From: Actinomycetes bacterium
Lineage (GTDB): Bacteria > Planctomycetota > Phycisphaerae > JAACET01
Direction: 5' to 3'
DNA: 64,000 bases
Assembly (NCBI GenBank): GCA_030614915.1
Contig: JAUXAG010000011.1
Location: forward strand, 26,516-90,515
How positions within the stretch are numbered: the stretch's first letter is position 1; each line of letters opens with the position of its first letter. Positions 12,766-42,133 of this stretch are shown one piece after another. The position numbers and the translations under genes were made by a program. The notes below the pieces were generated by a model that was given only the letters and a program-made list of their open reading frames with translations, made no database searches and had not been told where the DNA came from.

Positions 12766-15093
12766 ATGCCCATGACTTCCAATAAAACCAAGCCGAACGG
12801 CCAAAGTAAGCCCGGTTCGACACATCAGAAGCCCCCCGAGCTTGCCAACCGTACCTTCTGGTTACTGATTTTGACCGGATTGCTGCCTTCGCTGGTGGCT
12901 GCCCTGGTCAGCGTTCAAACTCAGCAGTCGCTGCTGACAAAGCGGGCCAGGAATCTGCAGACCTCAGCCAACCAGTTAGCCCAATCATTTAGCAGCCGTC
13001 TGCAGAATGCCGCGGCCGAACTGTACCCGCTGGCCCAGGACAAGCTCATGGCCGATCCGCGAGTCTCAACCGACCAGAAGCTCGCCCGGATGCGTCGGCT
13101 TCAAGCCTCTTCTGAGATTTTCGACGAGCTATTTCTGCTCAGCTCAAAGGGACAGGTGTTGGCCTCAACCGATCCGGCGGCGCCGCCGTCTGTGCTGCAG
13201 CGGGATTGGTTGGCGGATGCTCGGCAAGGTATAGCCAGCGTTCACGGCCCAGTTACCCTGGAACAGGGCCAGCCCCAAGGCCTGTTCTTGTCGTGGCTCG
13301 TAGAGCAAAAGCCCGATGGGGCTCCTGTGGTGCTGGTCGGCTTTGCCGCCTTGGACGCCCTGGCCGCCGACATGGAATCATTCGTGCAGGGCCAAAGCGG
13401 TGTAGCCATGCTCGCTGCCGGGGACGGGCAGATATTGGCTGGCAGCACACCTGGCCTGGTGGGCAAGCGCATCGCCGTCCCCTCGTCTGATTCTGGAAAG
13501 GCCATGGATTCCAGTTGGCGGGTCGCCCACTTGCTCAACACCGACGATGCGTACTTCACTGCCGACAGCGCCTTGGCCTATCCGGGATTACTAAGCGACG
13601 GTTCCTGGCAGGTCTTGGTCGCTCAGAGCCGCACCGAAATCTTACAGTCCACCCGTCAGTCCGCCACCTGGTCTTTGATTACCGTGGTTGTGGTTACCCC
13701 CGCGGTGCTGATCCTGGGCTTGATGTTCAGCCATTCCATGCGGAAAGGTTTGGGCACCTTGATTACCGCCACCAGGAACATAGCCCAGGGCGATCTTAGA
13801 CCTATGCCCCCGGTCAAGTCATACCATGAGATTGCCGTACTCGCTGAGACCTTCAACCAGATGACCGCCAGTTTGGCCAAGAGCCGCGATGAGGTCAAAC
13901 GCTATCAGCAACACCTGGAGAACCTCGTGGACGAGCGGACAAAGCAGCTTCAAGAAAAGAGCCAAGCCTTGGCTGTTTCCAACGATGAACTAAAGCTCCA
14001 GGCCCAGCACCTCGAGCAAGCCCGCCAGGAGGCGGTCAAGGCCCACGAGGTGCTCAAGGCCGCCCAGACCGAAATCGTGCAGATGGAAAAAATGTCCAGT
14101 TTGGGACAATTGGTCGCCGGCGTTGCCCATGAGATAAATACACCCGTCGGAGCGGTCTTTAACTGCATGGACCAGATGCATCATCGACTCAGCGATCTGC
14201 CCGGATACTTGGAGCTGATCCGCTCTATCTCCGACCAGCAGCTCCAGGACCTCCGCCAGCTGTTTACTAGAGCTCTGGAAACCCCTGCCGCTGCTGCCCT
14301 GATAGTCTCTGCCGCTGGGCGTAACGAGCTGATCGGCCAGGTCCGACAGATGGGCATAACCGAGCACACCAGAGAAGTTGCCGATCTGCTTGGCCGCTTC
14401 GGTTTGACCGACCAGCAGGACCTTGAGGCTGTGGGCCGCCTGGCCCGGAAGTACGATATCCTCGAATTCCTCCGAACCTTCGGTGACTTGTGCCAGTGCT
14501 CCAAGATTACTAAGCAAAGCGCCGAGAAAATCGCCGACATCGTCCAGGCTTTGCGATACTACTCCCACTCGGACGCTGATGCTGTAACTCCCATTGACAT
14601 CCGCGAGAGCCTCTCCAACACCCTGGTTATCATGCACAACAGGATTAAGTCCCTCGCCCAGCTCGAGTTGAAAGCACCCGATGACTTGCCCACTGTCCTG
14701 GGCAATGGTTCCCTCAGCCAGGTCTGGACCAACCTTATCAGTAATGCCCTCGGTGCCATCGAGGAGCGCGGCGAGGACTTCAGTGAGGGACGCTTGCTGA
14801 TTACTGCCGAGCACAGCGACCAGGATGAGGTGACGGTCACTGTAGGCGGCAATGGTCGGCCCATACCCCCCGAGGCACGTTCGAAGATATTCGATCCGTT
14901 TTTCACCACCAAAGGCGTTGGCCGGGGCTGCGGCCTGGGTTTGTCCGTAGTCACCGGAATCGTCAAGCAGCACCGCGGCAAAATCAGTTTCCAAACCAAT
15001 GACGATTGGACCAGTTTTACCGTAGTTATTCCTACTAAGGGAGCAGATGAACACCAGCCCGTCAAAACAGAAGTACTATGTAATATGCGTTGA
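12766..15093 (+). CDS. Sensor histidine kinase with periplasmic sensor domain, HAMP, coiled coil, HisKA and HATPase
   Basis: Two TM segments flank a periplasmic region of about 250 aa. HAMP, H-box (AGVAHEINTP) and G-box (GCGLGLSV) are present. Confidence 0.85.
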   Translation: MPMTSNKTKPNGQSKPGSTHQKPPELANRTFWLLILTGLLPSLVAALVSVQTQQSLLTKRARNLQTSANQLAQSFSSRLQNAAAELYPLAQDKLMADPRVSTDQKLARMRRLQASSEIFDELFLLSSKGQVLASTDPAAPPSVLQRDWLADARQGIASVHGPVTLEQGQPQGLFLSWLVEQKPDGAPVVLVGFAALDALAADMESFVQGQSGVAMLAAGDGQILAGSTPGLVGKRIAVPSSDSGKAMDSSWRVAHLLNTDDAYFTADSALAYPGLLSDGSWQVLVAQSRTEILQSTRQSATWSLITVVVVTPAVLILGLMFSHSMRKGLGTLITATRNIAQGDLRPMPPVKSYHEIAVLAETFNQMTASLAKSRDEVKRYQQHLENLVDERTKQLQEKSQALAVSNDELKLQAQHLEQARQEAVKAHEVLKAAQTEIVQMEKMSSLGQLVAGVAHEINTPVGAVFNCMDQMHHRLSDLPGYLELIRSISDQQLQDLRQLFTRALETPAAAALIVSAAGRNELIGQVRQMGITEHTREVADLLGRFGLTDQQDLEAVGRLARKYDILEFLRTFGDLCQCSKITKQSAEKIADIVQALRYYSHSDADAVTPIDIRESLSNTLVIMHNRIKSLAQLELKAPDDLPTVLGNGSLSQVWTNLISNALGAIEERGEDFSEGRLLITAEHSDQDEVTVTVGGNGRPIPPEARSKIFDPFFTTKGVGRGCGLGLSVVTGIVKQHRGKISFQTNDDWTSFTVVIPTKGADEHQPVKTEVLCNMR

Positions 15094-16654
15094 CGACGAC
15101 GCCGATTTTTTGGCATCTTTGACCGATCCGCTCCGCAGGGCCCTGGATCGGCTCGGAGCCGACATCCGCTGTGATTGCGAGTTTGTCGACAGCGCTGACT
15201 CTGCCGTGGCTCTGTGCCGGCAAATCGCCGCCCAGGGCGAAGAATGTGCTCTGATCATAACCGACCAGAGGATGCCCGACACCAGTGGGCTCGAGTTGCT
15301 TGAGCAGCTCCGCGAGATTTTCCCCCATGCCGCCAGGGTCTTGCTGACCGGATACGCCGGCCTTGATTCCGCCAGGCTGGCCATCAATAAGCGACTGCTC
15401 CACCGCTACATCAGCAAACCCATCTCGGACCTTACCGAGTTTTCAACCTCCATCGTCGGATTGGTCAACGAGTTTCACCTCCAACGCCTGACCAGACGCC
15501 AGCAGCAGGACCTCCAGCAGCAGGTCGTACTCCTCCAGCAGGCCAACGACCGGGTTACCAGGCTCAAGCTGGCCGCCGAGCAGGTGGCTTATTTCACTCA
15601 GGGCCTGGGCACCCTTGACCTGCAGGAAATCCTCTACCTCACGGTCAACAACGTTCCCCGGTTATTTGGGGCTGTTCATGCCATGCTGGTGGAGGTTGAT
15701 GACCAGGGAAAGCTTCGTTTACTGCGGCGTCTGGGGCACAGCTGCTGCGATTCCTTGCCTTGCGCACAAGTTCTGCCCGAACTTCTGGTCGATTTATTTG
15801 AACCGAATCGGCCCTGCCTGATTAGGCAATTGCCTGCCGATACTGACGCCGGTCTCCACGATCAGCGGGCTTTGCAGGTTATCATCCCCATCGATACCTC
15901 CCCCTGCCGGTCGGAGTCTTCATTTACTCAAGCAGCTCCAAGTGGCAGTGAATCTGTCCGTGCCTCCGGGCTGGTGCGCCCGACCCTCTTGTGCCTTTGC
16001 TGCCCGCGGGAGGATAATCAGCCCCAGCAGACCGAAGAGATAGAATACAAGGCAGCCTTGGTCCGGGACATTATCAAAACCAACCTCACCCACGCAGCCG
16101 TTTATGCCGAAAGTCAGCGGCTCAGCCGTTACGACAGCATGACTGGCCTTCTTGTTCGTCGAGTTTTCGAGGACCGCCTCGTCCAGGCCTGTCAAGAGAG
16201 CGATCGCTACGGTCGGCCGCTGAGCATGATCATGATGGACCTCGATAACTTTAAAGAGGTTAATGATACCTACGGCCATCTCAGCGGAGATTTTGTCCTG
16301 GAGGAAGTTGGCCAGTTGATCCGCAAGAACTTGCGATCCTGTGACATCGCTGCCCGCTACGGCGGAGACGAGTTTACCGCTTTACTTCCCGGAACTTCTG
16401 CCCACGGGGCCCAGAAACTCGCCGAACGCTTCCGCCGGAAGATTACCCAGCACGTTTTTGCTTACGAGCATTTGAAAATAACAGTGAGTATTGGCATAGC
16501 CACCTATGATCCACAGATTGATCAAAGCGCCCTGAGTTTGGTCCATCGAGCCGACGAGGCCATGTACCAGGCCAAGAGTACTGGCGGAGATTCGATCAGC
16601 TGGACCCAGACCTCTCGGCCACAGTTGCAGGATCAGCATGTAGCGGGGGTATGA
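15047..16654 (+). CDS. Response regulator receiver + GGDEF diguanylate cyclase
   Basis: REC domain with the phospho-accepting Asp context (LIITDQRMPD); C-terminal RYGGDEF active site. Confidence 0.85.
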   Translation: MNTSPSKQKYYVICVDDDADFLASLTDPLRRALDRLGADIRCDCEFVDSADSAVALCRQIAAQGEECALIITDQRMPDTSGLELLEQLREIFPHAARVLLTGYAGLDSARLAINKRLLHRYISKPISDLTEFSTSIVGLVNEFHLQRLTRRQQQDLQQQVVLLQQANDRVTRLKLAAEQVAYFTQGLGTLDLQEILYLTVNNVPRLFGAVHAMLVEVDDQGKLRLLRRLGHSCCDSLPCAQVLPELLVDLFEPNRPCLIRQLPADTDAGLHDQRALQVIIPIDTSPCRSESSFTQAAPSGSESVRASGLVRPTLLCLCCPREDNQPQQTEEIEYKAALVRDIIKTNLTHAAVYAESQRLSRYDSMTGLLVRRVFEDRLVQACQESDRYGRPLSMIMMDLDNFKEVNDTYGHLSGDFVLEEVGQLIRKNLRSCDIAARYGGDEFTALLPGTSAHGAQKLAERFRRKITQHVFAYEHLKITVSIGIATYDPQIDQSALSLVHRADEAMYQAKSTGGDSISWTQTSRPQLQDQHVAGV

Positions 16655-16658
16655 GAAT

Positions 16659-18650
16659 ATGGATTGGCCTATTCTAGTTGTCTGGCTTGACGGTCAGGCG
16701 GATTCGCAATTGCTCGAGATGCTCAGCTCCAAGGGCTGGGCCTTGGAGTCCGTCGCTTCGCTCCAAGAGACTCTGCACAGAGCCAGCCGGGCCGAGTATT
16801 TGGCCATTGTCATTCAAGTCTCTCAAGCCCCCGCCCCGGAACAACTCGAAGGGCTCTTTCGGCTCAGAAAATTGCAGCCCTTGGCCCCGGTCTTTCTCCT
16901 GGGCCGGGCCGAGATCGACACCGCCCAAATCCTGACCAAACTGGGCCTGAATAGCGCTTCTTGGCTGCAATCTACTAGCGAGCTTCACCAGATCCTCTCG
17001 GATGTGCTCAGTGCTGAGTGTGATCAAGGCTTGAGCGATACGGTTATCCTCTGTGTCGATGACGACCCCGATTTTCTGCTGTCTATGCAGCAGTGGCTTG
17101 AGCCTCGTTTGGCCGAGTGCTTCGGCGATCGTGGCCGACCACAATTAGAGTTTGCTTCCTCACCGGCCCAGGCCTTGGAGTTTGCCGCCCAGATGAGCCG
17201 CCAAGCCCCTGACTCTCCCACGCATGCCCAGAGTCCTGCTCAAGACCAGTCCGAGCAATACGGCCAGGCTCGACAGTTGGGTTTGGTTTTGACCGACCAG
17301 AAGATGCCCAAAACCAGCGGTACTGAGCTTTTGACCCAGGTCAAAGCAATGCTCCCCAAGGCCCGTCGGGCCCTGCTGACCGGACATGCCGGGCTCGATT
17401 CGGCCGTTACCGCCATCAATAAGCAACTCGTCGACAGGTATTTTACCAAGCCCATTACCGACCACGTTGATTTTGCCAACGGCATAGTCCATCTGCTCAA
17501 CGAGTACCTCCTCGGCGAACGCCAGGAATGGTACATTGCCCGCCTCCGTGCCCAGTATGAATTCGCCAGGGATTTATCCACTCAGGCCAGCCTCAGGGAT
17601 GTGCTCGATTTGACGGTCAGCTTTATCGCTGAAAATCTTCAGTGCAGCCGGGTTTCCATAATGCTCATCGAGGATAACTGCCTGGTGGTCAAGGCTTACT
17701 GCGGACTGCCCGAACAGCTGGACGTGGAGAATATCCGCATTCCCATTGGCCGGGGCGTGGCCGGAAACGTCTTCCAAAGTGCCCTGCCTAATTACCACAA
17801 TGATAGGAATCCGAACTATTGGCAGGAGGATGACTCGCCGGTCGAGTCCAGCTTTCGCGTCTTCGCTTCCGTACCCTTGATGTTGGCCCCCCTGCGCGTG
17901 CACGATATGCCTCTGGGCGTGATCAACGTTACCGAGCGGATGGATGATAAGCCCTTCACCCGTGATGAGGCCGCCCTGTTGGCCTACATTGCCGACACCG
18001 TTTCCATCGCTATTAACAATCAGCTCAGCCGGCGTGAGGTCGAGAACCTTTATTACCAGACCATCACCAGCCTGGCCCTGGCCATGGAATCGAAGGACCC
18101 CTACACTGCCGGCCACAGCCAACGAGTGCACGAATACTCCGTGGGCATTGCCCGGCAGTTGAACTTATCCGCCGAGGATGTCGAGCAGATCGGTAGAGCT
18201 GCCTTGCTCCACGATCTGGGCAAGATCGGCGTCCCTGAACAGATCGTGGACAAGCCCGGACCGATGACCGAAGGCGAGTTCCATCAGATGGCCCGCCATC
18301 CTTCCGAGGGGGCCCGGATTATTCAGGCCCTGAGCTTCTTGAAGCACTTGGCCCCCATTGTTCGCAGTCATCACGAGCGGCTGGACGGCCAGGGATATCC
18401 GGACCATGTCAAGGCCCAGGATATACCGTTGGCCGCTCGCATAATAGCCGTCGCTGATACCGTCGACGCCATGACCTCAGACCGGCCCTACCGAAAGGGC
18501 CTGCCCGTCGAAGATATGCTCGCCGAACTCCAGAAGGTCAGCGGCTCCCAACTCGACGTCCAATGCGTCCAGGCCTTTATTGCCTTCTGGAACGATCGTC
18601 AGGGCGACAAGGCCCATGCTGAGGCATTGGCCCAGGCCGTCACCGACTAA
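16659..18650 (+). CDS. Response regulator receiver + GAF + HD-GYP phosphodiesterase
   Basis: Second REC (LVLTDQKMPKTSG), a GAF-like region, and HD...HHERLDGQGYP HD-GYP motifs. Confidence 0.85.
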   Translation: MDWPILVVWLDGQADSQLLEMLSSKGWALESVASLQETLHRASRAEYLAIVIQVSQAPAPEQLEGLFRLRKLQPLAPVFLLGRAEIDTAQILTKLGLNSASWLQSTSELHQILSDVLSAECDQGLSDTVILCVDDDPDFLLSMQQWLEPRLAECFGDRGRPQLEFASSPAQALEFAAQMSRQAPDSPTHAQSPAQDQSEQYGQARQLGLVLTDQKMPKTSGTELLTQVKAMLPKARRALLTGHAGLDSAVTAINKQLVDRYFTKPITDHVDFANGIVHLLNEYLLGERQEWYIARLRAQYEFARDLSTQASLRDVLDLTVSFIAENLQCSRVSIMLIEDNCLVVKAYCGLPEQLDVENIRIPIGRGVAGNVFQSALPNYHNDRNPNYWQEDDSPVESSFRVFASVPLMLAPLRVHDMPLGVINVTERMDDKPFTRDEAALLAYIADTVSIAINNQLSRREVENLYYQTITSLALAMESKDPYTAGHSQRVHEYSVGIARQLNLSAEDVEQIGRAALLHDLGKIGVPEQIVDKPGPMTEGEFHQMARHPSEGARIIQALSFLKHLAPIVRSHHERLDGQGYPDHVKAQDIPLAARIIAVADTVDAMTSDRPYRKGLPVEDMLAELQKVSGSQLDVQCVQAFIAFWNDRQGDKAHAEALAQAVTD

Positions 18651-18950: not shown

Positions 18951-19169
18951 GCTATAAAGATTGTGGTCGCGAGGGGGCTATTTTCGTGCCCTTCTTGGTG
19001 AACCTGAAAACTTTTGGCAGGTGGAGCAGACACTTCGTGTCTTTGCTAATCGGCCTTGCCAGCGTCGTACGTTCAAACCGATCGGCGAAGGCTTCAATAA
19101 CTCTTAGGAATGGGGCGAATGCCCCCGTGTCGTTTTTGTTTGTTGTCAAGTTTAGAAAGAGAGAAAAAA

Positions 19170-20198
19170 ATGAAATGTAAGCGTATCTTTTCGATAATGC
19201 TGGCTCTGCTGATCTTCGGATTCCTGGCCGGCAATTCAGCCCACGCTACCACCTGGACCGTCACCCAACTGACCAACAACAGCTACGGCGACGAATATAC
19301 CCGGATCTACGGCTCCAACGTGGTCTGGTGGGGCTACGACGGCAGCGACAGAGAGATATTCCTCTACGACGCCAACACCACTATCACCACCCAAATCACC
19401 AACAACAGCTACGTCGACAAGGGTCCCCAGGTCTACGGCTCCAACGTGGTCTGGTTCAGCTACGACGGCTACGACAGCAGCACCAGAGAGATATTCCTCT
19501 ACGACGGCAACGGCACCACCCAACTGACCAACAACAGCTACAGCGACGAGTATCCCAAGATCTACGGCTCCAACGTGGTCTGGTACGGCTACGACGGCAG
19601 CGACAACGAGATCTTCCTCTACGACGGCAGCGGCACTACTCAACTGACCAACGACAGCTACGACGACTACAATCCCCAGATCTACGGCTCCAACGTGGTC
19701 TGGTACGGCTCCGACGGCAACGACTATGAGATATTCCTCTACGACGGCAATACCACGGTCACCACCCAAATCACCGACAACAGCTACAGCGACGAGTATC
19801 CCAAGATCTACGGCTCCAACGTGGTCTGGTACGGCTACGACGGCAGCGATTATGAGATCTTCCTCTACGACACCAACACCACGCTCACCACCCAACTGAC
19901 CAACGACAGCTACGACGACTACAATCCCCAGATCTACGGCTCCAACGTGGTCTGGCGGGGCTCCGACGGCAGCGACTATGAAATCTTCTTCTACGACGGC
20001 AACACCACCACCCAACTGACCAACAACAGCTACTACGACAGTTCTCCCCAGATCTACGGCTCCAACGTGGTCTGGTACGGCAACGGCCCTGACGGCAGCG
20101 ACTCTGAGATCTTCCTGGCAACCCCCGAACCCGCCACCCTGGCCCTGCTGCTTCTGGGCGGCTTGCTCCTGCTGGATCGCAGGCACAGATCGGCCTGA
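19170..20198 (+). CDS. PEP-CTERM-anchored PD40 (TolB-like WD40-like) beta-propeller repeat protein, 8 repeats
   Basis: Signal peptide; 8 x 40-aa repeats (TQLTNNSY.DEYP.IYGSNVVWYGYDGSD.EIFLYDGN) resembling PD40. C-terminal PEPATLALLLLGGLLLL-DRRHR exosortase sorting signal. ATG at 19170 with purine-rich SD preferred over the ORF-track start 19110. Confidence 0.75.
   Translation: MKCKRIFSIMLALLIFGFLAGNSAHATTWTVTQLTNNSYGDEYTRIYGSNVVWWGYDGSDREIFLYDANTTITTQITNNSYVDKGPQVYGSNVVWFSYDGYDSSTREIFLYDGNGTTQLTNNSYSDEYPKIYGSNVVWYGYDGSDNEIFLYDGSGTTQLTNDSYDDYNPQIYGSNVVWYGSDGNDYEIFLYDGNTTVTTQITDNSYSDEYPKIYGSNVVWYGYDGSDYEIFLYDTNTTLTTQLTNDSYDDYNPQIYGSNVVWRGSDGSDYEIFFYDGNTTTQLTNNSYYDSSPQIYGSNVVWYGNGPDGSDSEIFLATPEPATLALLLLGGLLLLDRRHRSA
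19260..20110 (+). repeat. Eight tandem ~120-bp coding repeats with near-identical DNA cores
   Basis: tctacggctccaacgtggtctggtacggctacgacggcagcgac recurs at 120-bp spacing. Confidence 0.8.
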
Positions 20199-20540: not shown

Positions 20541-21815
20541 ATGCGAACCATAGCCATAATCAACCAGAAGGGTGGTTGCGGCAAGACCACCATCAGCATC
20601 AACCTCGCAGCCACGTTGGCCGAGACCGGCCGGAAAGTCCTTCTGGCCGATATGGACCCCCAAGGCCATTGCGCCCTCGGACTGGCCGTGCCTGGCGGGC
20701 AGATCGAACGCAGCATTTATGATGTCCTCTGTGAGCCCGACCAGCAGGATTTGGCCAGGAGCTTGCGACAGGTTACCTGGCAGATTGCCACAAACTTCGA
20801 CTTGGCACCTTCGACCATTAGCCTGGCCGCCTTTGAGCAGAGATTCGCCGCAACCCCAGGACGTGAGGATCGTCTGCGGCGGGTCCTTTTGGCCGCTGCC
20901 GACCAGTATGACCTGACCATTATTGATTGCCCACCGAGCGTTGGACTCTTGACCTTTAATGCCCTCCGCAGTGCAGATGAGGTCCTCGTGCCCGTGGAGA
21001 CCGGATACTTTTGCCTCCAGAGCCTCGGCCAGCAGCTCGAGACTCTCGAAGTATTACGCAAAAAATGCGGACAGGGCTTTCGGGTCCGTGTGGTCCCCAG
21101 TTTGTATGACGTGCGGACCAGGTTGGGCAGGGAGGTCTTGGCTCACCTGCAGGCCAGGTATGACCGCATACTGGCCAAGGCCTGCATAAACTTCAACACC
21201 AAGCTTAAGGAGGCCGCCAGCCTCGGTCAGCCGATCACCGAGTACGATACCGCCAGTATCGGCTACCGAGATTTCCGGACCCTGGCTGAAGAACTTCTTT
21301 CCGGCCGTCCGGCCGAGCTCTCGGTCGATGCACTCGAAAAACCGTCCGCTGCTAACGATACAATAACCGAACATGCCCCCTTCAGCACCGCCGAGCAAGT
21401 CCTGGCCCAGGCCCAGCGGATCGACAAAAACGCCCAAGACCTCCTCCAACGCGCCGACAAAATGATGCCCGGAGGATTAAACGCTCCAGCCAAGAAGGAC
21501 AAACCGCAGACCACCGAGCAACGCTTGGCCAAGTTCTATGGAGTTAGCCAGACCGAACAGGGAATCATCTTTCGAGCCCACTATCCGCATGCAGAGCAGG
21601 TCTGCTTGGCCGGCGACTTCAACGGCTGGAACCCCGCTCAAACGCCGATGGCCCGTCACCAGCACGACAATGTCTGGCAGGTGGTTTTACCGCTGATGTC
21701 CGGCTGTTACCGTTACCGACTAGTGGTCGACAATCGTTGGCAGCGAGACCCCTTCAATGACCGGGTCGAAGCCAATCCCTTTGGTGAGCTCAACTCGGTC
21801 GTCGAGGTAAAGTAA
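20541..21815 (+). CDS. ParA/MinD-family ATPase fused to a C-terminal AMPK-beta-like glycogen-binding domain (CBM48)
   Basis: Deviant Walker A (INQKGGCGKTT), DMDPQGH and IIDCPPS motifs. The C-terminus (IFRAHYPHAEQVCLAGDFNGWNP....HQHDNVWQVVLPL..GCYRYRLVVDNRWQRDPFN) aligns with the AMPK beta GBD consensus (VFRW..G.KEVYLSGSFNNW......R..NNF..IL.LP.G.H.YKF.VDG.W..DP). Confidence 0.8.
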   Translation: MRTIAIINQKGGCGKTTISINLAATLAETGRKVLLADMDPQGHCALGLAVPGGQIERSIYDVLCEPDQQDLARSLRQVTWQIATNFDLAPSTISLAAFEQRFAATPGREDRLRRVLLAAADQYDLTIIDCPPSVGLLTFNALRSADEVLVPVETGYFCLQSLGQQLETLEVLRKKCGQGFRVRVVPSLYDVRTRLGREVLAHLQARYDRILAKACINFNTKLKEAASLGQPITEYDTASIGYRDFRTLAEELLSGRPAELSVDALEKPSAANDTITEHAPFSTAEQVLAQAQRIDKNAQDLLQRADKMMPGGLNAPAKKDKPQTTEQRLAKFYGVSQTEQGIIFRAHYPHAEQVCLAGDFNGWNPAQTPMARHQHDNVWQVVLPLMSGCYRYRLVVDNRWQRDPFNDRVEANPFGELNSVVEVK

Positions 21816-21908
21816 GCAGGATATATACCGCTGGGCAAGGGGGACCGTTTTTTTTGGGGCTAGAGGCGGCCTCCGTTTTGTAGCAGTCTTCTACGAGGCC
21901 ATTATGCC

Positions 21909-22574
21909 ATGCAGGATGAGCTGAGCCGGATTGCTCATCTGTTCCTTTCCAGTGCGGACTCGCCTGCCGGGCAGATTACGGTTCGGGCCCTCTTGGCTGA
22001 ACACTTGCCCGATCCCCCTGCGGCAAGCAAACGCATAGCCGCCCACTTCGCCCGCCAGCTCGGCAGCGCAGCTCTGCTGCAGTTCGACAACGGCGGGGCA
22101 CTCCTGCGTTTGTTTAGTACCGCTCAGATTGGCCCCAAACGCCGTTCGTCCCGTAGCCGTGCTGCCCATGTAAACGACTTCTCCCGGGCCGTGGCTGATT
22201 TACCCAAACGCACCAGTCTGCTCCTGGTGGACTTGGACCTTAATAGTGAGTTGTTAGCTCAATGCCCCCAAATTTCCGTAGTAACCTGCCCGGAATCAAA
22301 AATAGTCGTGGATGTTTATAGTCAACTCAAACGGCTGGCCCCCAGCTCGCCCCAAGCCCTGGGCCTGACCATGATCGATTGTCTAAGTGTTGTTCAGGGA
22401 CAGCGCCTGGCCGAGAGGCTTTGCCAGGCAGCCAAGGAATTCCTGGGATTGATCTTGCGACTGGACGCCGTGATCCTGCGCAGCTCGCGATTGCATCAGA
22501 GCACACTCGCCCGGGCAGCTTCAATGGACCAATGCACACTCACCCGGAGCATCGATTCACTTCGCTCAACTTGA
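21909..22574 (+). CDS. Degenerate ParA/MinD-fold protein lacking Walker A lysines (pseudo-ATPase paralogue)
   Basis: LFLSSADSPAGQITVRALLA aligns to IAITNQKGGVGKTTTSVNLA with the lysines replaced. LLLVDLD...ISVVTCPESKIVVDVYSQLKRL matches the ParA Walker B / cargo region. LGLTMIDC matches GVLLTMLDA. Confidence 0.55.
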   Translation: MQDELSRIAHLFLSSADSPAGQITVRALLAEHLPDPPAASKRIAAHFARQLGSAALLQFDNGGALLRLFSTAQIGPKRRSSRSRAAHVNDFSRAVADLPKRTSLLLVDLDLNSELLAQCPQISVVTCPESKIVVDVYSQLKRLAPSSPQALGLTMIDCLSVVQGQRLAERLCQAAKEFLGLILRLDAVILRSSRLHQSTLARAASMDQCTLTRSIDSLRST

Positions 22575-22899: not shown

Positions 22900-23115
22900 C
22901 TAGAACAATCTGGCGCATCGCGGCAGTTCGCCGACCAGGGGCCTGACGTAGTCAACAAAGGCCTCTTTGATTACTCCAGGCCTGTCGCAGTACTCAGCCG
23001 GCATGGTCTTGGTCTTGCCAGCCACCGAAGACAAGGGCGTCAAAAAGGTTTCCATTTTGTATTTAGCGCCACTCCCGCTCAGCCGGCGAATGGCACCGAG
23101 CCGTCCATTGCCCAA
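22900..23115 (-). pseudogene. Probable frameshifted 3' portion of the phosphofructokinase gene (C-terminal extension in a different frame)
   Basis: The ORF overlaps the pfk stop by 37 nt in another frame. It encodes ...RLSGSGAKYKMETFLTPLSSVAGKTKTMPAEYCDRPGVIKEAFVDYVRPLVGE, which resembles C-terminal extensions of long PPi-PFKs (from memory). Confidence 0.35.
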
Positions 23116-24098
23116 TCCGTTGCGTAACGCACTGCCTCCTGTCCCACCGTGTACGCCTCCTGGGCATCAATCTGAGAAACCACCGTCGGAAAGCAGCGCT
23201 GAAGGTAGCCGAAGGTATCCCCGCGCATACGTTTAATCTCTGGCTTAGCCCGGCGAAGTTCAGAGATTAGCAAGTCCGCCAGCAGCCCCGTCCCCGAGAG
23301 CGTTACATTCCCGTGGGCGTCCTCTTCCATCACCGCTTGGGCCTTCTTGGCCCAGAGTTCTCCCTCTCCGTCGGCAATGCCCTCGGAAACAGCCACTAGG
23401 CAGCGACCCTGAGCCTTGTAGACCCGCTCCACGTCTTCGATGAACTGCGACATCTCCATAGCTACTTCCGGCACATAAATCAGATGCGGGCCGTCGTCCG
23501 CTTCTTGACGAGCCAGCACCCCCGCCGCGGTCAGCCAACCGGTGTGCCGACCCATGATTACATCAATCTTCACGCCTGGTATCGCTGTGTTATCCAGATT
23601 ATCTCCCATCAGGGCCAAGGCCACGAACTTCGCCGCCGAGCCGTATCCCGGGCAATGGTCCGTAACCGGCAGATCGTTGTCGATGGTTTTGGGTATGTGG
23701 ATCGCCCGTAGGTCGTAGCCCACCTTTTCCGACAAGTTGTTGAGAATGTAGGCCGTCGAGGCCGAATCGTTGCCCCCGATGTAAAAGAAATAGTGAATCT
23801 CATTCCTGCGGAAGACCTCGAATATTTCCTTACAGTATTCCTCGTCGGGTTTGTCGCGAGTGCTGCCCAGGGCCGACGAAGGCGTATTGGCCACGGCTTC
23901 CAGCTGCTCCGCCCGAAGGTCTTGCAGCTCAATGAAGTTCTCTTCCTTCATGCCCCGCACCCCGTTCCGGGCCCCGTAGATCTTGCCTATCTCGTCTCGT
24001 TCCTGCCCAGCCTTGACGACGCCTACCAGAGATTGGTTGATTACCACGGTAGGCCCACCCGACTGGCCGACCACGGCATTTCCCTTTATCTTGGCCAT
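23079..24098 (-). CDS. pfk: 6-phosphofructokinase (PFK-A family; possibly PPi-dependent), apparently truncated/frameshifted at the 3' end
   Basis: GQSGGPTVVIN N-terminal nucleotide-binding motif; PKTIDNDL and MGRHTGW catalytic motifs. Confidence 0.85.
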   Translation of the reverse strand: MAKIKGNAVVGQSGGPTVVINQSLVGVVKAGQERDEIGKIYGARNGVRGMKEENFIELQDLRAEQLEAVANTPSSALGSTRDKPDEEYCKEIFEVFRRNEIHYFFYIGGNDSASTAYILNNLSEKVGYDLRAIHIPKTIDNDLPVTDHCPGYGSAAKFVALALMGDNLDNTAIPGVKIDVIMGRHTGWLTAAGVLARQEADDGPHLIYVPEVAMEMSQFIEDVERVYKAQGRCLVAVSEGIADGEGELWAKKAQAVMEEDAHGNVTLSGTGLLADLLISELRRAKPEIKRMRGDTFGYLQRCFPTVVSQIDAQEAYTVGQEAVRYATDWAMDGSVPFAG

Positions 24099-27350: not shown

Positions 27351-27379
27351 TTGAAAAAATGGTTTTCTGCTAGTATGAT
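27351..27379 (+). promoter_or_regulatory. Sigma70-like promoter (TTGAAA-17 nt-TATGAT) upstream of the giant protein gene
   Basis: ttgaaa at 27351-27356 and tatgat at 27374-27379 with 17-nt spacer. About 59 nt upstream of ATG 27438, which has a GAGGT SD. Confidence 0.35.
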
Positions 27380-27437
27380 AACAGTTGCCACTTTCTTGCC
27401 GGGCTTTCTCCCGTATGGGCCTTATGCGAGGTTGCAG

Positions 27438-30400
27438 ATGGCTATCCGTTTCAAATGCACCAAGTGCTCCCATTCCTTGCAGGTCCCCGACGAACATGCC
27501 GGGCGCAAGGCAAAGTGTCCAAACTGCGGCCAGATTCTCCCAATACCCGCACCCGCTCAGGCCCAACCCCCAGCAAAGCCCCCAATCAAGCCTGCAGTTC
27601 CTGCTGTGCCCAGTCCTCTCGGGCCCAGCACCGCCGGACCAATCCCCTCTCTGACTAAAAAGCAAAAGCCGGGCAAGGCCAAACCGAAGCGGCCTTCGAA
27701 GCAGACACAGCCCCCGAAGGACCAGGGCCGACCACCAGAGTTGCGCTCTGGGAAAAAAGCCGTTATCTTCGGCCTCATCCTCGTGGCTGTGTTGGTCTTG
27801 GTTGTAGTCGTTTGGCAGACGGATTGGTTCAGTTCCAAGAAGGAGCCTTCCAGGCCGCAGCCTCACACGACGCCCACGACCCCTGCCACGACCAGAGCCC
27901 CGATCGAGAAAAAGCCCGCCATTACCGCCGAGATACTCCGGGAGCAAACCGATCAGCTGGAGTTGCAGTTGGCCACTTTGGAGAAGCTTTTGGCCGTAGA
28001 GACGACTGTCCCAGGCCTGGACCAGGGCTTGGTTGGGGCCTTCAAGGCCCTTGACGAGTTCTCTCGCCAAATACAAGGTCAACCACTTGCCCGCACGAAT
28101 CTCAGCCTCTTGCTGAGCCAGAACAGAAAATGGTTGTATGAAAAAGTGCTCGACCGGGCCCAGACTTTGGTTGGCCAATACCGTTTTACCTCTGCCAAGA
28201 CGTTGCTGGAGCAGATCTTGCCTGCCGGGGCAGTCGCCGCAAAGCCTGACACTGGTCCCCCGACACCGGCAAGGTTCCCTCGAAGAGTCGCCAGGTCCTT
28301 GGGCGGTGCTGGCTGGCAGGGCGCTCAGCAGGCCTGCAGGGATTTTGCCAATGGCGAGTTGATCAAGCGTGGCCTGCAGGGAGAGATCTGCTTATGGCTC
28401 CGCGAGGAATCCGACGAATTTGGCCAAACCAGCATAATTCTCAGCCTGGACGCTCCATCCGAACCCTTGAGCTCATTCCGCCGCCAGAACCAATCCCCGC
28501 AAAAATTCCAGCAAAAATGGGCACCTGCCAGTGAGCATTTATCCTTTATTCGCCAACTCCAGAGCGGGGCTGAAGCTGAGTGGGACATACCCACTGCCGG
28601 TCTCATGTATGCCACGATTCGAGAGTTGGAAAGAAGGTGTATGACCTTTGAGACACCGGCCAAGGCCGATTCGGAACTGATGAAGCGCTTGGCCCGACGA
28701 AAAGCTGACTACAAAGTGCACCAGCAAATACTCGCCTTGATTGCCCGTTGTCGTTACGCCCAAGCCTTGCAGTTGGCCCAACGGCTGCTAAAGGATGACC
28801 CGGTAAATCCTGACAACTATCGCTGGCTCCTGCGCTGCTATCTCGAAAGCTACAATACCAAGCCGTTAATCATAGATGCAACTTTGCTATTACGCTATAC
28901 CCGGAAGATAGCTGAGCTGTGCAAGTATGACGTGCCCAACAATTTGTTGGCTCTGAATCTGGCCCCCAGTGCTCTGCCACAAGGACCCGGTGCTTCCGTG
29001 CACCGTGAATTCATCCACAATCGGACATCTCTATTGAAACGCCTCAACGAGTATGCCGGACGCTACAAACCGGTAATCGACTGGATGCAAGGCGAGAGTG
29101 TGGATTTGGTTCTGCGAGATTTTGAGTATAACCCTTTCCTCGCTGGCGAGCCCGTGGACTTACTGGATGCCCAGGGCCTGCTTTACACCCTGTATAGCCG
29201 GGGGGCACCGCCCGGCCGGGCTGCACTCATCTTGGTCAGGCTTCGGCCGGATCAACAGGAGCAGGGACTAAGTTTGCATATGCCCAATGGCCAGCGCTAC
29301 CGCTTGTGGAACATTTATCCGCCCGCTGACTCGTCCGATCTCGATGCCGGCTTATCTGCCAGCCTGCCAGAGCCGCTCATCAGACCCCTGCTGGACTTGA
29401 GCCGCATCAACCCTTCAGAGCTCACTGGGCAGACGACTATACCGGTAGTTAACAGTTTGACTATACTGCGATGCCAGCTGGACAACGGCCAAAGCCGTGG
29501 CGGTTGGAGACTGCGGATTCCCCGTGCTGCTGTGGACAGAGAACAACTCGGACCGAAAGAATCTCGCTCCACTCGCAGGGCAACCCCCTCGCGTGGCTTG
29601 CCCTATCTTGGCCCAGACAGACCCACCACTCGGCGGAGCTCTTCGCGTACCCCTGCCGCAGAGGCGGACAAATACATATGGATCAGCTTCCCTACTAGCG
29701 CTGCCGGCGGACGTAGAGCTACTGTTAGTAGAGCTACGGTTAATGGTCGGAATCAGCCTATAACTTGTCTGGTACGCAGCGGCCGGGGCAAAATTGCATA
29801 CTTTAGCGACGCCAAAGGTAACTACGTAATCGGCTTGGATGGCAAGCGCCTCTACGCCGAAAAAACTGAACTGCTTCGGACGCTTAACGAGGAAGGTCCC
29901 GACTGGTATCTCGCCCTGGATACCAAGGCCTATCCTCCTGAACTGCGGGAGAAGCTGGAAGAGTATGATCGATCCGCTGCCCAGGAGCGTTCCCCTGGCC
30001 GTCCCAGCTTCGGACCTGGAGCTATTCTCCCCGGTCCCGGCATCGGCCCGGTCCCCGGCAGGCCCAGAACTTCCCGACCCCCTCGCCGTGGGCCGTTCAC
30101 TGTGGCCCAAGCTGCATCCTGGCTGAGCGACTTGGCCGCTCAGCCATCGGCGCCGCTTGGGCGACGCAGCTTTGCCGGCAGAAGAGCTCGGACCACCGAT
30201 TCGGGTCCCGTTGTGGGCAGGTGGTTGAACTGGCAGGGAGCAATCATAGCTCAACTGGACGGACGCATCAGACAGTTGGGTCGCGATGATTTTGCCGAGC
30301 CGATGTTTTATTCTCCTCAGGCCGCGGACGATTTGCTCAACACCGCCGACACCTATTACCAGACCAGCCTGCAGGCTTGGCCGACCTTGGCCGGGGAAGT

Positions 30401-32075
30401 CTACAGACAGGCTAATAAGTCCAGGCTTTCTCGCCTGATGGGCCTCGACGCCTCCGCTTCGGCTCGCCGCTCGGCGCGGACCCAGCGACTGACGGGCATA
30501 GACATGGATAAGGTCTCTTTGCGTGCGGAGGCTCTTCTGGCTTCGGGCGATTCCAACCAGGCCATAGCTATATATGCTGACCTGATCGGGTTCTTATCGC
30601 TTCAGCTGCAGCAGGCTATAACTCAGGACCTGTTATCGACCGGCGAACGGCCATTACGCGGCACTGGCGGACCTTCGGATCAGCCCCAACCTGGCCTGTT
30701 TCCAGGGCAGGATCTGAGTTCATTGGTCGATCGGCGAGCCCGGCAGGCGATTGGAGCCGGCCCCGGCCCTGCACGAGACTGGCGAACGGGCCGGACAACA
30801 ACTCCGGACAGCCGAAGGTTCTCGCCCCAGGAGCAGTTCTTCGCCGACGCGGATTTGCTGCTTGAGTCCTGTGCTGGAAGGGCCGCTGCGCTGGAGCAGG
30901 CCGGTTTGCTCGCCCAGGCCCGACAGAGTCTTCGCCAGAGTTCGGGCCGAATCCGGGCTTACCTCTTGACCGAACTTACCGAGTTCATCGAACGCAGCCG
31001 AGCCCGGCAAACGCCCGTATCTCCACAGCTCAAGCAAATCAGGCAAAGGTGGCAGGCAATCTCCCAGGAAAAAATCGCTGCCGCTCTGAGCCGCACCTTA
31101 CAGGCCGCCCGGGGCCAAGCCATTACCGTGCCCTCGCCCTCGAGTTCGCAAGAACCCTCGGCTCCACCAGTTGTTTCGACAGAACCAAGCAAGCCTCCCA
31201 TGAGCCTGGCCGCCTGGTTGGACAGCGAGAATACCGACCTCTCGCCGCTGGAGCCTGAACGCTTGATGGTCGCCGCCCAGTTCAGTTGGATTCGCGACTC
31301 GATTGACCTTGACCAGACCGAGCCCTTAGCCCCTGCCCAGCGCGCCCAGCGAATAATCGAACTGGCCCAAGCATATCAGAGTGGTGCACCAGCCGAGGCT
31401 GCCACTGCCGAGGCCCTGTGGCAGTTGGGCTCGTTCATGGCTGCTATGGGCTACCAAGCTGAGGCTTGGGATTGCCTTGGCCAGGCTGGGGCCCTATATA
31501 GCCAATTAGCCCTGGCCCTTCTTCCTGAGGCTATCGAACCTCGGGGCCGCTCCGAGCTCAGCCAACAGCAGCACTACTACGCTTACCGTGCAGCCGCCCT
31601 GGCTGCCCTGGCTGAAGCTGCCGCCATCCCCGCGGATGAACCTGTCTCTGCAAAGTGTTCTGCGATGTTCGCCGCTGAGATTCGCGCCAAGCTCTTGCAG
31701 CTCCAAAGAGGTTGGTCCGGACTGGCCCTCGCTGAAGAACCGCCCGCGATATTGACCACTGCCGGCCATGCCTTGCGGATTGTGCAGGACTTGGCCGAAG
31801 CAAAGGCCTATGCCCAACCAAGGATGCGCTTCTGGTGGTGGTATTATCCGCCGGAACTTTCTCAACGACAGCTTTCCGCTCCAGGGCGAGGACCCGCACG
31901 TCCGCCCACAAGCTCACCCAGGTCCAGGGACTCTTCGCGGCGGCTCAAGCTTGAATACATCGAGACTCAACAGCAAACCACGCCTGGCCGGCGTTCCCAG
32001 CCCCGCCGCCCTGCTCCGACCGGGCCTATTGACCACATCCTGCCCCCAACCCCCGGTGGTAGGCTCGGATTGTAG
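27438..32075 (+). CDS. Giant (1546 aa) membrane-anchored protein with N-terminal MJ0042-type zinc ribbon, Pro-rich linker, single TM, and a large C-terminal region with no recognisable domains
   Basis: FKCTKCSHSLQVPDEHAGRKAKCPNCGQIL double CxxC is paralogous to the N-terminus of the 4173 gene. TM helix AVIFGLILVAVLVLVVVVW. The rest is low-complexity (Ala/Arg/Gln/Pro-rich). ORF-track start 27351 is a TTG inside the predicted promoter. Confidence 0.7.
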   Translation: MAIRFKCTKCSHSLQVPDEHAGRKAKCPNCGQILPIPAPAQAQPPAKPPIKPAVPAVPSPLGPSTAGPIPSLTKKQKPGKAKPKRPSKQTQPPKDQGRPPELRSGKKAVIFGLILVAVLVLVVVVWQTDWFSSKKEPSRPQPHTTPTTPATTRAPIEKKPAITAEILREQTDQLELQLATLEKLLAVETTVPGLDQGLVGAFKALDEFSRQIQGQPLARTNLSLLLSQNRKWLYEKVLDRAQTLVGQYRFTSAKTLLEQILPAGAVAAKPDTGPPTPARFPRRVARSLGGAGWQGAQQACRDFANGELIKRGLQGEICLWLREESDEFGQTSIILSLDAPSEPLSSFRRQNQSPQKFQQKWAPASEHLSFIRQLQSGAEAEWDIPTAGLMYATIRELERRCMTFETPAKADSELMKRLARRKADYKVHQQILALIARCRYAQALQLAQRLLKDDPVNPDNYRWLLRCYLESYNTKPLIIDATLLLRYTRKIAELCKYDVPNNLLALNLAPSALPQGPGASVHREFIHNRTSLLKRLNEYAGRYKPVIDWMQGESVDLVLRDFEYNPFLAGEPVDLLDAQGLLYTLYSRGAPPGRAALILVRLRPDQQEQGLSLHMPNGQRYRLWNIYPPADSSDLDAGLSASLPEPLIRPLLDLSRINPSELTGQTTIPVVNSLTILRCQLDNGQSRGGWRLRIPRAAVDREQLGPKESRSTRRATPSRGLPYLGPDRPTTRRSSSRTPAAEADKYIWISFPTSAAGGRRATVSRATVNGRNQPITCLVRSGRGKIAYFSDAKGNYVIGLDGKRLYAEKTELLRTLNEEGPDWYLALDTKAYPPELREKLEEYDRSAAQERSPGRPSFGPGAILPGPGIGPVPGRPRTSRPPRRGPFTVAQAASWLSDLAAQPSAPLGRRSFAGRRARTTDSGPVVGRWLNWQGAIIAQLDGRIRQLGRDDFAEPMFYSPQAADDLLNTADTYYQTSLQAWPTLAGEVYRQANKSRLSRLMGLDASASARRSARTQRLTGIDMDKVSLRAEALLASGDSNQAIAIYADLIGFLSLQLQQAITQDLLSTGERPLRGTGGPSDQPQPGLFPGQDLSSLVDRRARQAIGAGPGPARDWRTGRTTTPDSRRFSPQEQFFADADLLLESCAGRAAALEQAGLLAQARQSLRQSSGRIRAYLLTELTEFIERSRARQTPVSPQLKQIRQRWQAISQEKIAAALSRTLQAARGQAITVPSPSSSQEPSAPPVVSTEPSKPPMSLAAWLDSENTDLSPLEPERLMVAAQFSWIRDSIDLDQTEPLAPAQRAQRIIELAQAYQSGAPAEAATAEALWQLGSFMAAMGYQAEAWDCLGQAGALYSQLALALLPEAIEPRGRSELSQQQHYYAYRAAALAALAEAAAIPADEPVSAKCSAMFAAEIRAKLLQLQRGWSGLALAEEPPAILTTAGHALRIVQDLAEAKAYAQPRMRFWWWYYPPELSQRQLSAPGRGPARPPTSSPRSRDSSRRLKLEYIETQQQTTPGRRSQPRRPAPTGPIDHILPPTPGGRLGL

Positions 32076-40259: not shown

Positions 40260-42077
40260 TCAAAACGGCAGTTTCGCCCTTGGAAAACTAATCTCCTCGC
40301 CAACGGCCGGCGGAACGAACGGCTCGAAATGATCGTCCTTCCATCTTAGCCAGCGCAATGAAGGGTCTTCCAAAGAAACCCCAAACCGGAAACTAGCCTC
40401 CATTACTCGGCCATCATCGCTCAATTCCGTTACTTCAACAGTCATCCCGCTTAGCTCGATCCGTTCGCCCAGGGCCAGGGGGTGATCTGTACTTCGGAAC
40501 ATTTTATCGAACCACCGCCCTAAATATCCCCTCTTCAGACGTACAAGCAGTGTTTGGGCGTCTGGCCGACGGATTGTCTGTCTGGATAAAGCCGATGCAA
40601 GGGTCCTCATTCGGCGAGGAAGCGGTTGTTCGTTCACCGCTCTGGCGCTCAACATGTACAGCAGATGGCCGGGCGCAGGATGGTTCAGAAAAATCAGGTC
40701 CTGTTTCTCAATCGAAGAATCCATCTTGCCGAGCCCATGACAACTCTCCAGGAAGTACTGCGGGCCCATCGGCCACTTCGCACGCACATACAGCAGTACC
40801 GGCGAGCCCAGCACGTGGATTACTACAAGTACTATCGCCAGCAGGACCGTCGGGACCCGTCGGCTCAGTGCGTAATTATCCCGCAGCTGCACGCTTTTAA
40901 ACACCCAGCTCAGATACTCGCTCAGCAAGCCCATCGCACCGATACCGACGAAGAAGAGCTGCCGATCCTGCGGACTGCTCGCACATGGGGCAATGCTGGC
41001 CAGGATCATTCCCAACACCCAGAAACGAGCTACTCGGCTTGCCTTGAGCAGAGGACGAAACAGCACTGCCAATAGTACTAGTACCATCACGCCGATTAGC
41101 CAAACCCAGTGCAGGTTCTGCGGAGAAAAAATACTGAATTCCCCCGGAGGAATTGCCCACTGTCCCAGCAGCAAAATCGGCACGCGCACAGGCAGCACAA
41201 ACAAGAAGCCAAGCGGATCCGCCAGCGGATCCGTATAGATGCCCACCCCTTCGACCCCGTAGCCTTGGTACCACCAGAGTACTCGCCAGACACACACCAC
41301 CAGCACATACGGCATCAGCCCCTTGAGTCTTTGCCCGGCAGGCCCACGATCCAGCACAAGCGCATAACCCAGCAGATAGGCGCAAATGCCGATACCGGCC
41401 TCAGCCGACAGCAAACTCATGCCTAAAAGAATCGGCCCCAACGCCGCACCGGCTCGCCAATTATCTCGCCGCCAGCGATCCTGAGCGAGCAGGGCAAGAA
41501 CCCCAAACAACGTGGCCAATAGTGCGTTGCGGTTAGCCAAAAAACCCACCGCCGTGCCGTGCGAATCATCAAGGGCGTAGAGCAGCCCCGCCAATCCAGC
41601 TGCCGCAGCCACGCCCATGAATCGCCGGTATAGCACTGTTGTGCAGCCTATCAGTGCTCCAAACCATAGCAGGCTCTGAGCGTGCATCAGTCCCGCCCGA
41701 TTAGGCCAGAGCCAATAGTCCAACACATGTGTCATAGCAGCCAAGGGCCGCCAGAATGCCCATCGAATTTTCGGATACGTCCACCACGGAATCCAGCCGG
41801 CGTCCATCATCCGTTCGGTCCGTGCTGCATCCCCATCGAAGAATCGCCATATATCCGGCGGGACGGGTAGCAGCTCACCATACTCGCTCGAACCCATCAT
41901 CGCCCAGCGTTGCAGGTGATCTTCCAGGATCCACCCCACCCCCAGCGACGGCAGGGCAAGGCCCATTGCCAGTATTGCCAGTACAATCGGCAAATACCGC
42001 CAAGTCAACACCGCATCCAGCAACCCCGCCAGACCACCGTCAAGCCCTGTTGCCTGAACCTCTGCCTTCATTTGCAT
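40260..42077 (-). CDS. Polytopic membrane protein (>=10 TM) with C-terminal soluble domain; possible GT-C-fold glycosyltransferase; paralogue A
   Basis: About 50-55% identical to the adjacent gene. Conserved YA(L/I)DD(S/A)HG acidic motif in the first predicted extracytoplasmic loop, as in GT-C enzymes. Family not identified. Confidence 0.55.
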   Translation of the reverse strand: MQMKAEVQATGLDGGLAGLLDAVLTWRYLPIVLAILAMGLALPSLGVGWILEDHLQRWAMMGSSEYGELLPVPPDIWRFFDGDAARTERMMDAGWIPWWTYPKIRWAFWRPLAAMTHVLDYWLWPNRAGLMHAQSLLWFGALIGCTTVLYRRFMGVAAAAGLAGLLYALDDSHGTAVGFLANRNALLATLFGVLALLAQDRWRRDNWRAGAALGPILLGMSLLSAEAGIGICAYLLGYALVLDRGPAGQRLKGLMPYVLVVCVWRVLWWYQGYGVEGVGIYTDPLADPLGFLFVLPVRVPILLLGQWAIPPGEFSIFSPQNLHWVWLIGVMVLVLLAVLFRPLLKASRVARFWVLGMILASIAPCASSPQDRQLFFVGIGAMGLLSEYLSWVFKSVQLRDNYALSRRVPTVLLAIVLVVIHVLGSPVLLYVRAKWPMGPQYFLESCHGLGKMDSSIEKQDLIFLNHPAPGHLLYMLSARAVNEQPLPRRMRTLASALSRQTIRRPDAQTLLVRLKRGYLGRWFDKMFRSTDHPLALGERIELSGMTVEVTELSDDGRVMEASFRFGVSLEDPSLRWLRWKDDHFEPFVPPAVGEEISFPRAKLPF

Positions 42078-42133
42078 TTCCCGGACAAATCGGGCTGATA
42101 CCCAAGAAAGTTTAATTCACAACAGCTAGATTA

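Follow-up and report, generated by a model that had tools for sequence, protein, structure and literature searches.

We describe a two-gene module in a 64,000-nucleotide stretch of contig JAUXAG010000011.1 (positions 26,516 to 90,515 of the forward strand, hereafter the window), a metagenome-assembled NCBI contig of 99.7 kb. The first gene, open reading frame (ORF) 1, encodes a 424-residue protein that joins a Soj-like ParA ATPase to a carbohydrate-binding module of the AMPK-beta type, CBM48 (20541-21815, plus strand). The second, ORF2, encodes a 221-residue protein predicted to be a FlhG-derived pseudo-ATPase that lacks the Walker A motif (21909-22574, plus strand). Because a ParA carrying its own glycogen-binding domain is found here with an FlhG-derived dead ATPase, the pair may form a so far undescribed system for glycogen-granule placement. 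The best reading of our data is that of an orphan ParA/MinD-type module that places glycogen granules on the nucleoid, and we put its probability at roughly 40%. A fuller version, which we hold a little more tentatively still, would make it the first ParA/MinD-family system to have a polysaccharide storage granule as cargo, with the granule bound by CBM48, the nucleoid as track, an FlhG-derived activator and a phylum-wide presence in Planctomycetota.

Both genes lie on one strand and in one reading frame, 93 nt apart (21816..21908). Their coordinates and lengths are exactly those given in an earlier sequence-only reading of this DNA.

Conservation of the ParA-CBM48 fusion

Both domains are found in all 120 best protein matches (48-95% identity), which were drawn from independent assemblies (ENA, JGI, NCBI and Logan). 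At the genome level, a scan with each species represented by a single genome gave 344 encoding stretches. Coverage was judged on the best 80 of these, all of which span residues 1 to at least 419, CBM48 included. The best 80 loci, which include one in the complete Fontivita pretiosa genome, belong to Phycisphaerae, Tepidisphaerales, Sedimentisphaerales, Pirellulales, Planctomycetales and Kuenenia. Nearly all of these carriers are labelled Planctomycetota; the labels of a few metagenome-assembled genomes (MAGs) disagree. We conclude that the ParA-CBM48 module is characteristic of Planctomycetota and conserved in at least 80 species-level genomes.

For the nearest relatives of the window (L006, L007 and P0143 versus P0002), the MAG records are split between Actinomycetes/Actinomycetota and Phycisphaerae. 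Since the gene content fits Planctomycetota, some of this taxonomy is probably wrong.

The sequence-only reading had itself raised the prospect that the fusion is an artefact, a frameshift or mis-assembly joining a ParA gene to a CBM48 gene, and an apparent frameshift in the nearby PFK gene, at about 23094, could be taken as a sign of this. Against it stands the full-length architecture in all 120 best protein matches and in the best 80 loci, complete genomes among them. As the fusion is conserved across independent assemblies, we regard the artefact as refuted, with a negligible chance of being real. The PFK gene (22906-24098, minus strand) is frameshifted near 23094: residues 1-335 and 336-398 of its orthologue in L001, an 86%-identical relative, match different frames. 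The frameshift is either an assembly indel or a mark of a pseudogene.

The ATPase domain of ORF1

The N-terminal domain (residues 1-254; 20541..21302) matches Pfam AAA_31 at 3.5e-46 (residues 1-178, 157.8 bits against a cut-off of 27) and CbiA at 2.4e-17 (63.5 bits against 25.4). Its nearest solved relatives are chromosomal ParA/Soj proteins, namely 8ray (2.2e-43), T. thermophilus Soj (1wcv, 9.8e-39) and H. pylori Soj (2.3e-34), and Foldseek comparison with Soj gave target-normalised template-modelling (TM) scores of 0.86-0.90. All of the ParA motifs claimed from the sequence are indeed in place. The signature lysine and P-loop, K10-G-G-C-G-K-T-T17 (the deviant Walker A motif, nt 20568-20591), are unchanged in 120 of 120 homologues, and Walker A' D37/D39 and Walker B D129 are invariant; these protein-level counts refer to the best 120 homologues, with some motif residues checked in as few as 31. 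By every sequence test, ORF1 belongs to the ParA/MinD deviant-Walker-A family, and its motifs mark it as a catalytically intact Soj-like ParA. It has neither a signal peptide nor a membrane segment.

R192, in YDVRTRL, aligns with the DxRT motif of Soj and is invariant among homologues. We take it to be the counterpart of R189 of B. subtilis Soj, the arginine that binds non-specific DNA, and DNA binding through R192 is putative.

The likeness to chromosomal ParA/Soj amounts to ~34-40% identity, a TM score of 0.9 to Soj and M. xanthus ParA, and a shared deviant Walker A lysine, Walker A', Walker B and R189-equivalent arginine. In contrast to ParABS systems, ORF1 has no adjacent ParB and carries an additional linker and CBM48. 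No ParB-box motif (GERRxRA) was found in the window, or within ~5 kb of ParA-CBM48 in the 85 loci fetched for the neighbourhood counts, save for a match in L052 that runs opposite to the partner gene and is put down to chance. Nor did clustering of the neighbouring ORFs of these 85 loci yield a conserved ParB-like family. With no ParB nearby, ORF1 fails the ParABS test; it is an orphan ParA.

The family also departs from ParA/Soj in invariant residues of its own. C13 lies within the P-loop (KGGCGKT; nt 20577-20579), and H43-C44 follows DPQG (nt 20667-20672), where Soj has N-A/S. Together, C13 and H43-C44 could give the dimer interface a site that responds to redox state or to metal.

The linker and the CBM48 module

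The AlphaFold2 model of ORF1 (confidence score, pLDDT, 80) consists of the ParA core (residues 1-254), a mostly disordered linker and a confident beta-sandwich (residues 334-423). The linker is ~80 residues long (residues 255-332; 21303..21536, as bounded by pLDDT, secondary structure and column conservation). It is modelled as disordered at 256-281 and 310-320, and between these stretches contains a conserved helix (residues 284-308; nt 21390-21464). Column conservation is ~0.7 at residues 291-310 and 0 to 0.3 in the flanks.

The C-terminal module (residues 333-424; 21537..21812) scores above the cut-offs of both relevant Pfam families: CBM_48 at 7.8e-13 (residues 333-404, 49 bits against 22.4) and AMPK1_CBM at 3e-11 (residues 350-424, 43.8 bits against 26.8). 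Among solved structures, the CBMs of AMPK beta1/beta2 are closest to the last 102 residues (1z0n, E 2.7e-8). The alignment to 1z0n covers 74 residues with two short gaps, a fair match to the residue-by-residue correspondence described earlier.

In AMPK beta1, residues W100, K126, W133, L146 and T148 (rat numbering) contact glycogen, and their mutation abolishes binding (McBride et al., PMC2642990). Four of these five contacts are retained or conservatively substituted in ORF1. W363, R393 and W400, the equivalents of W100, K126 and W133, are each present in 120 of 120 homologues, and F414, the equivalent of L146, is F or Y among them. The position of T148 is changed, to a glutamate (E416) that is invariant in the 120 homologues, and a further residue, N418, equivalent to AMPK N150, is found in 117 of 120. 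The CBM48 of ORF1 is a predicted alpha-glucan binder with its carbohydrate-stacking tryptophans intact. A word-index search with the linker and CBM48 alone, aimed at other architectures, returned just 12 candidates and 9 fragments, too few to be informative.

In AMPK the same module senses glycogen (PMC2642990), and ORF1 could likewise be a sensor of the energy store. CBM48 would then report glycogen load and switch a Soj-like ParA whose targets are DNA processes (chromosome segregation, replication initiation or cell-cycle control). ORF2 would be a regulator, and glycogen a signal instead of a cargo. This would fit the kinship of the ATPase domain with chromosomal ParA/Soj, the conserved R192 and the lack of linked glycogen genes. 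However, no ParB or parS-type partner is found near any of the 85 loci, and the long flexible linker suggests a tether sooner than allosteric packing of the module against the ATPase. We consider a sensor unlikely, while ranking it first among the alternatives.

The downstream partner

In 66 of the 85 loci a partner gene lies directly downstream of ParA-CBM48 on the same strand. Two contigs end at the ParA stop, so that the partner is not assessable, and the remaining 17 loci have no partner within 5 kb.

In distant carriers the gene directly downstream encodes a much longer protein of 480-650 residues (~500) without Pfam domains. These long partners begin with (K/R)xLSEISHLFLS and variants, which compare with MQDELSRIAHLFLS in ORF2 and give the common form LSxI[AS]HLFLS. 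The ORF2 profile scores 30-60 bits on the long partners, and a hidden Markov model of the long partners finds ORF2 at 2.1e-20. Behind the ORF2-like domain they carry a proline-rich linker and then a conserved C-terminal domain of ~130 residues, with the pattern ...ECPxxPPMCPxAxLAVxRD...YRKLRWGGRxGLLLEAA (e.g. L025 6370-7971). This domain has no significant sequence match in the PDB (best E 0.24) and, in the Fontivita partner, no Pfam match; the clade of the window lacks it. The short partner form (215-225 residues) is confined to the clade of the window (L001, L006 and L007), where it is followed in conserved order by PFK and then AccC. From these profile matches, we judge ORF2 to be a clade-specific short version of a conserved partner of ~500 residues.

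The long partners also bear on a second alternative, in which glycogen would serve as the matrix, instead of or besides the nucleoid, and the partner would move some other cargo to or from the granules. Such a cargo, for example an enzyme complex or an envelope structure, would be held by the extra conserved ~130-residue domain of the ~500-residue partners, and CBM48 does sit at the C-terminus, where MinD has its membrane-targeting helix. Yet ORF2 lacks that domain, the window contains neither a separate copy of it nor a second ParA, and the Soj-type DNA-binding arginine is still invariant. Glycogen as matrix is a doubtful proposition, and we place it below the sensor.

ORF2 itself has no match in Pfam or NCBIfam, and the Pfam check proposed for it from the sequence was negative. 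Its family is small and well conserved (32 clusters), with an N-terminus conserved from Met1. Against the PDB, the family profile places FleN and FlhG on top, weakly (E 0.023). An exhaustive HMMER search with the family in 1.84 billion representatives reached 220 proteins, among them the partner family and genuine MinD/FlhG-type ATPases (E ~1e-5) whose consensus contains the FlhG N-terminal DQAxxLR motif. When aligned with those ATPases by hhalign, the ORF2 family gave 98.4% probability (E 5.4e-15, residues 86-219), and Foldseek comparison of ORF2 with FlhG/MinD-type structures gave TM scores of 0.4-0.53. ORF2 is a compact, degenerate alpha/beta domain of the MinD/ParA (SIMIBI) type (residues 24-220; 21978..22568) with sequence homology to FlhG/MinD-type ATPases.

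The earlier reading of ORF2 as a ParA-fold protein that lacks Walker A is right: no GK[ST] motif occurs over the whole protein. The residue register proposed for the motifs does not stand. The stretch SSADSPAGQITV (residues 14-25), read before as the P-loop, precedes beta1 in the model, and the equivalent position is the beta1-alpha1 loop at residues ~30-35 (AEHLPDPPAA), which has no G-rich loop and no lysines. Likewise, the Walker B equivalent is TSLLLVDLD (102-110) instead of LTMIDC, and its D108 is not conserved within the family.

We also tried, and rejected, the view of the sequence-only reading that ORF2 aligns well with the neighbouring ParA and is a dead copy of it. BLASTP against ORF1 gave E 0.41, and a family-versus-family hhalign comparison gave 0.9% probability. 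To judge by its homologies, ORF2 is instead a pseudo-ATPase of the FlhG/MinD branch without Walker A, not derived from the ParA next to it.

The N-terminal peptide of ORF2 (MQDELSRIAHLFLS; 21909..21950) is a candidate ParA-contact or activator motif. S6, I8, A9, H10, L11, F12, L13 and S14 are nearly invariant, and the model shows an undocked helix at residues 2-13 with low pLDDT. ORF2 lacks the DQAxxLR activator helix of FlhG, its own N-terminal helix carrying a different motif. At the other end, it stops at a helix that aligns just ahead of the FlhG C-terminal tail, and there is no C-terminal amphipathic membrane helix.

A possible mechanism for granule placement

ParA/MinD ATPases give bacteria a general way to position large objects that needs no cytoskeletal motor; known cargos include DNA, carboxysomes and other microcompartments, chemoreceptor arrays, flagella and the divisome. 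Next to nothing is known, to our knowledge, of how glycogen, the main bacterial carbon store, is distributed. In the granule-placement reading, ATP-bound ORF1 dimers would bind the nucleoid non-specifically through the Soj-type R192, each dimer presenting two CBM48 modules. With two modules per dimer, ATP-dependent dimerisation would therefore raise avidity for alpha-glucan particles, much as MinD, on dimerising, binds the membrane more avidly by means of its C-terminal helix. Glycogen granules would in this way be tethered to the nucleoid and spread over it. The N-terminal peptide of the partner may then contact ParA and trigger ATP hydrolysis and release. In other NTPases this is likewise set off by ParB, MinE, PomX and, on FlhF, the N-terminus of FlhG. 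Turnover of this kind would result in an even distribution and inheritance of granules, resembling a diffusion ratchet.

Several observations speak against granule placement as we picture it. The 17 of 85 loci without a partner within 5 kb (Pirellulales, Planctomycetales, Kuenenia and some Sedimentisphaerales) mean that the partner is either not obligatory or encoded elsewhere, and synteny is the sole argument for an interaction between ORF1 and ORF2. Glycogen-metabolism genes are absent from the 64-kb window, and there is no glycogen gene among the annotated conserved neighbour families of the 85 loci. One AMPK glycogen contact, T148, is replaced by the invariant E416 in the ParA-CBM48 homologues. 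Finally, in canonical ParA systems the activator sits on the cargo and the ATPase itself is not cargo-bound, so a ParA that binds cargo needs a different kinetic scheme.

The neighbourhood of the module bears on one more alternative. Besides the partner, clustering of the neighbouring ORFs of the 85 loci found no phylum-wide neighbour, and the annotated neighbour families are syntenic only within sub-clades: Polysacc_synt_2 upstream in 23 loci, a metallo-beta-lactamase-fold gene in 15 and UDP-glucose dehydrogenase in 7. The first and last of these could indicate a BcsQ-like regulator of polysaccharide machinery, that is, an ATPase that positions or controls an envelope or exopolysaccharide synthesis complex, as BcsQ does for cellulose synthase, its CBM48 binding another glucan or a protein. 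ORF1 does match CBP_BcsQ at 3.8e-10, BcsQ is among its structural matches, and both the window and L001 have a cyclic di-GMP module upstream. On the other hand, these neighbours are limited to sub-clades, the cyclic di-GMP genes are missing in L006 and L007, and the Soj-type matches of ORF1 are far stronger than those to BcsQ. Moreover, CBM48/AMPK CBMs bind alpha-1,4/1,6-glucan, and the lack of a signal peptide or membrane segment in ORF1 does not favour an envelope role. We find a BcsQ-like function improbable, the more so than glycogen as matrix.

Comparison with known systems

An orphan ParA with a small, family-specific partner gene directly downstream is also the arrangement of McdAB, PomXYZ, ParC/ParP and PpfA/TlpT. 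As in McdAB and other orphan ParA systems, the likely cargo of the ParA-CBM48 module is a non-DNA cytoplasmic body, and McdA is among the structural matches of ORF1. The design differs in two ways: in those systems the partner binds the cargo, which is a protein assembly, whereas here the ATPase itself carries the cargo-binding domain and a polysaccharide is the putative cargo. The partners differ too. ORF2 is predicted to be a folded pseudo-ATPase, unlike McdB-like proteins with their disordered basic N-terminus, coiled coil and invariant C-terminal Trp; this Trp, a hallmark of McdB, occurs in neither the short nor the long partner forms.

FlhG and FleN are MinD-type ATPases of flagellar number control. 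Unlike them, ORF2 has no Walker A or conserved Walker B Asp, falls below Pfam thresholds, reaches TM scores of only 0.4-0.53 and begins with LSxI[AS]HLFLS, not DQAxxLR. Like MinD, ORF1 is a deviant-Walker-A ATPase with a surface-binding module at its C-terminal end, and dimerisation would double the valency of that module. Where MinD has an amphipathic helix, however, ORF1 has a predicted glucan-binding domain of ~90 residues at the end of a long linker, and its core is Soj-type instead of MinD-type.

The CBM48 of ORF1 keeps the two stacking tryptophans of the AMPK-beta type, to which it belongs. Plant PTST proteins combine a coiled coil with a CBM48 and target proteins to starch; they have a helical segment ahead of the CBM, as does ORF1. 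In contrast to AMPK beta and PTST, the module here is bacterial, is fused to a P-loop positioning ATPase, has Glu at the T148 position and is a predicted glucan binder.

In our literature searches no publication on a ParA-CBM48 fusion or on ParA-driven glycogen positioning was found, and the word 'glycogen' is absent from the 2023 and 2024 ParA/MinD papers that came out on top in one of these searches; the architecture thus appears undescribed, as the sequence-only reading had held. If granule placement proves true, polysaccharide would be a new class of cargo for ParA/MinD ATPases, a cargo-binding domain on the ATPase instead of on the partner would be a new design, and ORF2 would exemplify an FlhG-derived pseudo-ATPase turned partner of a different NTPase. 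With cultured carriers available (e.g. Fontivita pretiosa) and predicted binding residues that are easy to name, the hypothesis lends itself to direct testing.

Other features of the locus and the window

Within the ORF1-ORF2 spacer (21840-21880), a run of eight T is accompanied by a weak terminator-like hairpin at 21856-21873. A consensus scan found 7 terminator-like sites versus 3.0 +/- 1.9 in shuffles, so the one in the spacer is not decisive; it could attenuate partner expression in the lineage of the window. The distance between ParA and partner shrinks to 28 nt in L001, and several other loci have an earliest possible partner start that overlaps the ParA stop codon.

Upstream of ParA-CBM48, at 12766-18650, lies the cyclic di-GMP cluster, made up of a Cache-HAMP histidine kinase and two response regulators, one with a GGDEF domain and one with GAF and HD-GYP domains. 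We dropped it as a candidate part of the system, since it is shared with L001 only and missing from both L006 and L007. A gene at 19110-20198, inserted between that for HD-GYP and ParA, encodes a 362-residue protein with about eight YGSNVVW-type repeats, a PEP-CTERM-like tail and no Pfam match; it is absent from the syntenic L001.

Elsewhere in the window, an ORF of 1574 residues (27351-32075) has no Pfam match at E <= 1e-5, and two tandem 605-residue paralogues (40260-43951, minus strand), 53% identical to each other, are membrane-protein-like and belong to no Pfam family. The window also encodes housekeeping functions (ValRS, IleRS, LeuA, EPSP synthase, PrmC, AccB/AccC, ArgB/ArgD-like proteins and Rnf). 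Its G+C content is 52-62% nearly throughout, with a single 2-kb stretch at 48%, as in ordinary chromosomal DNA.

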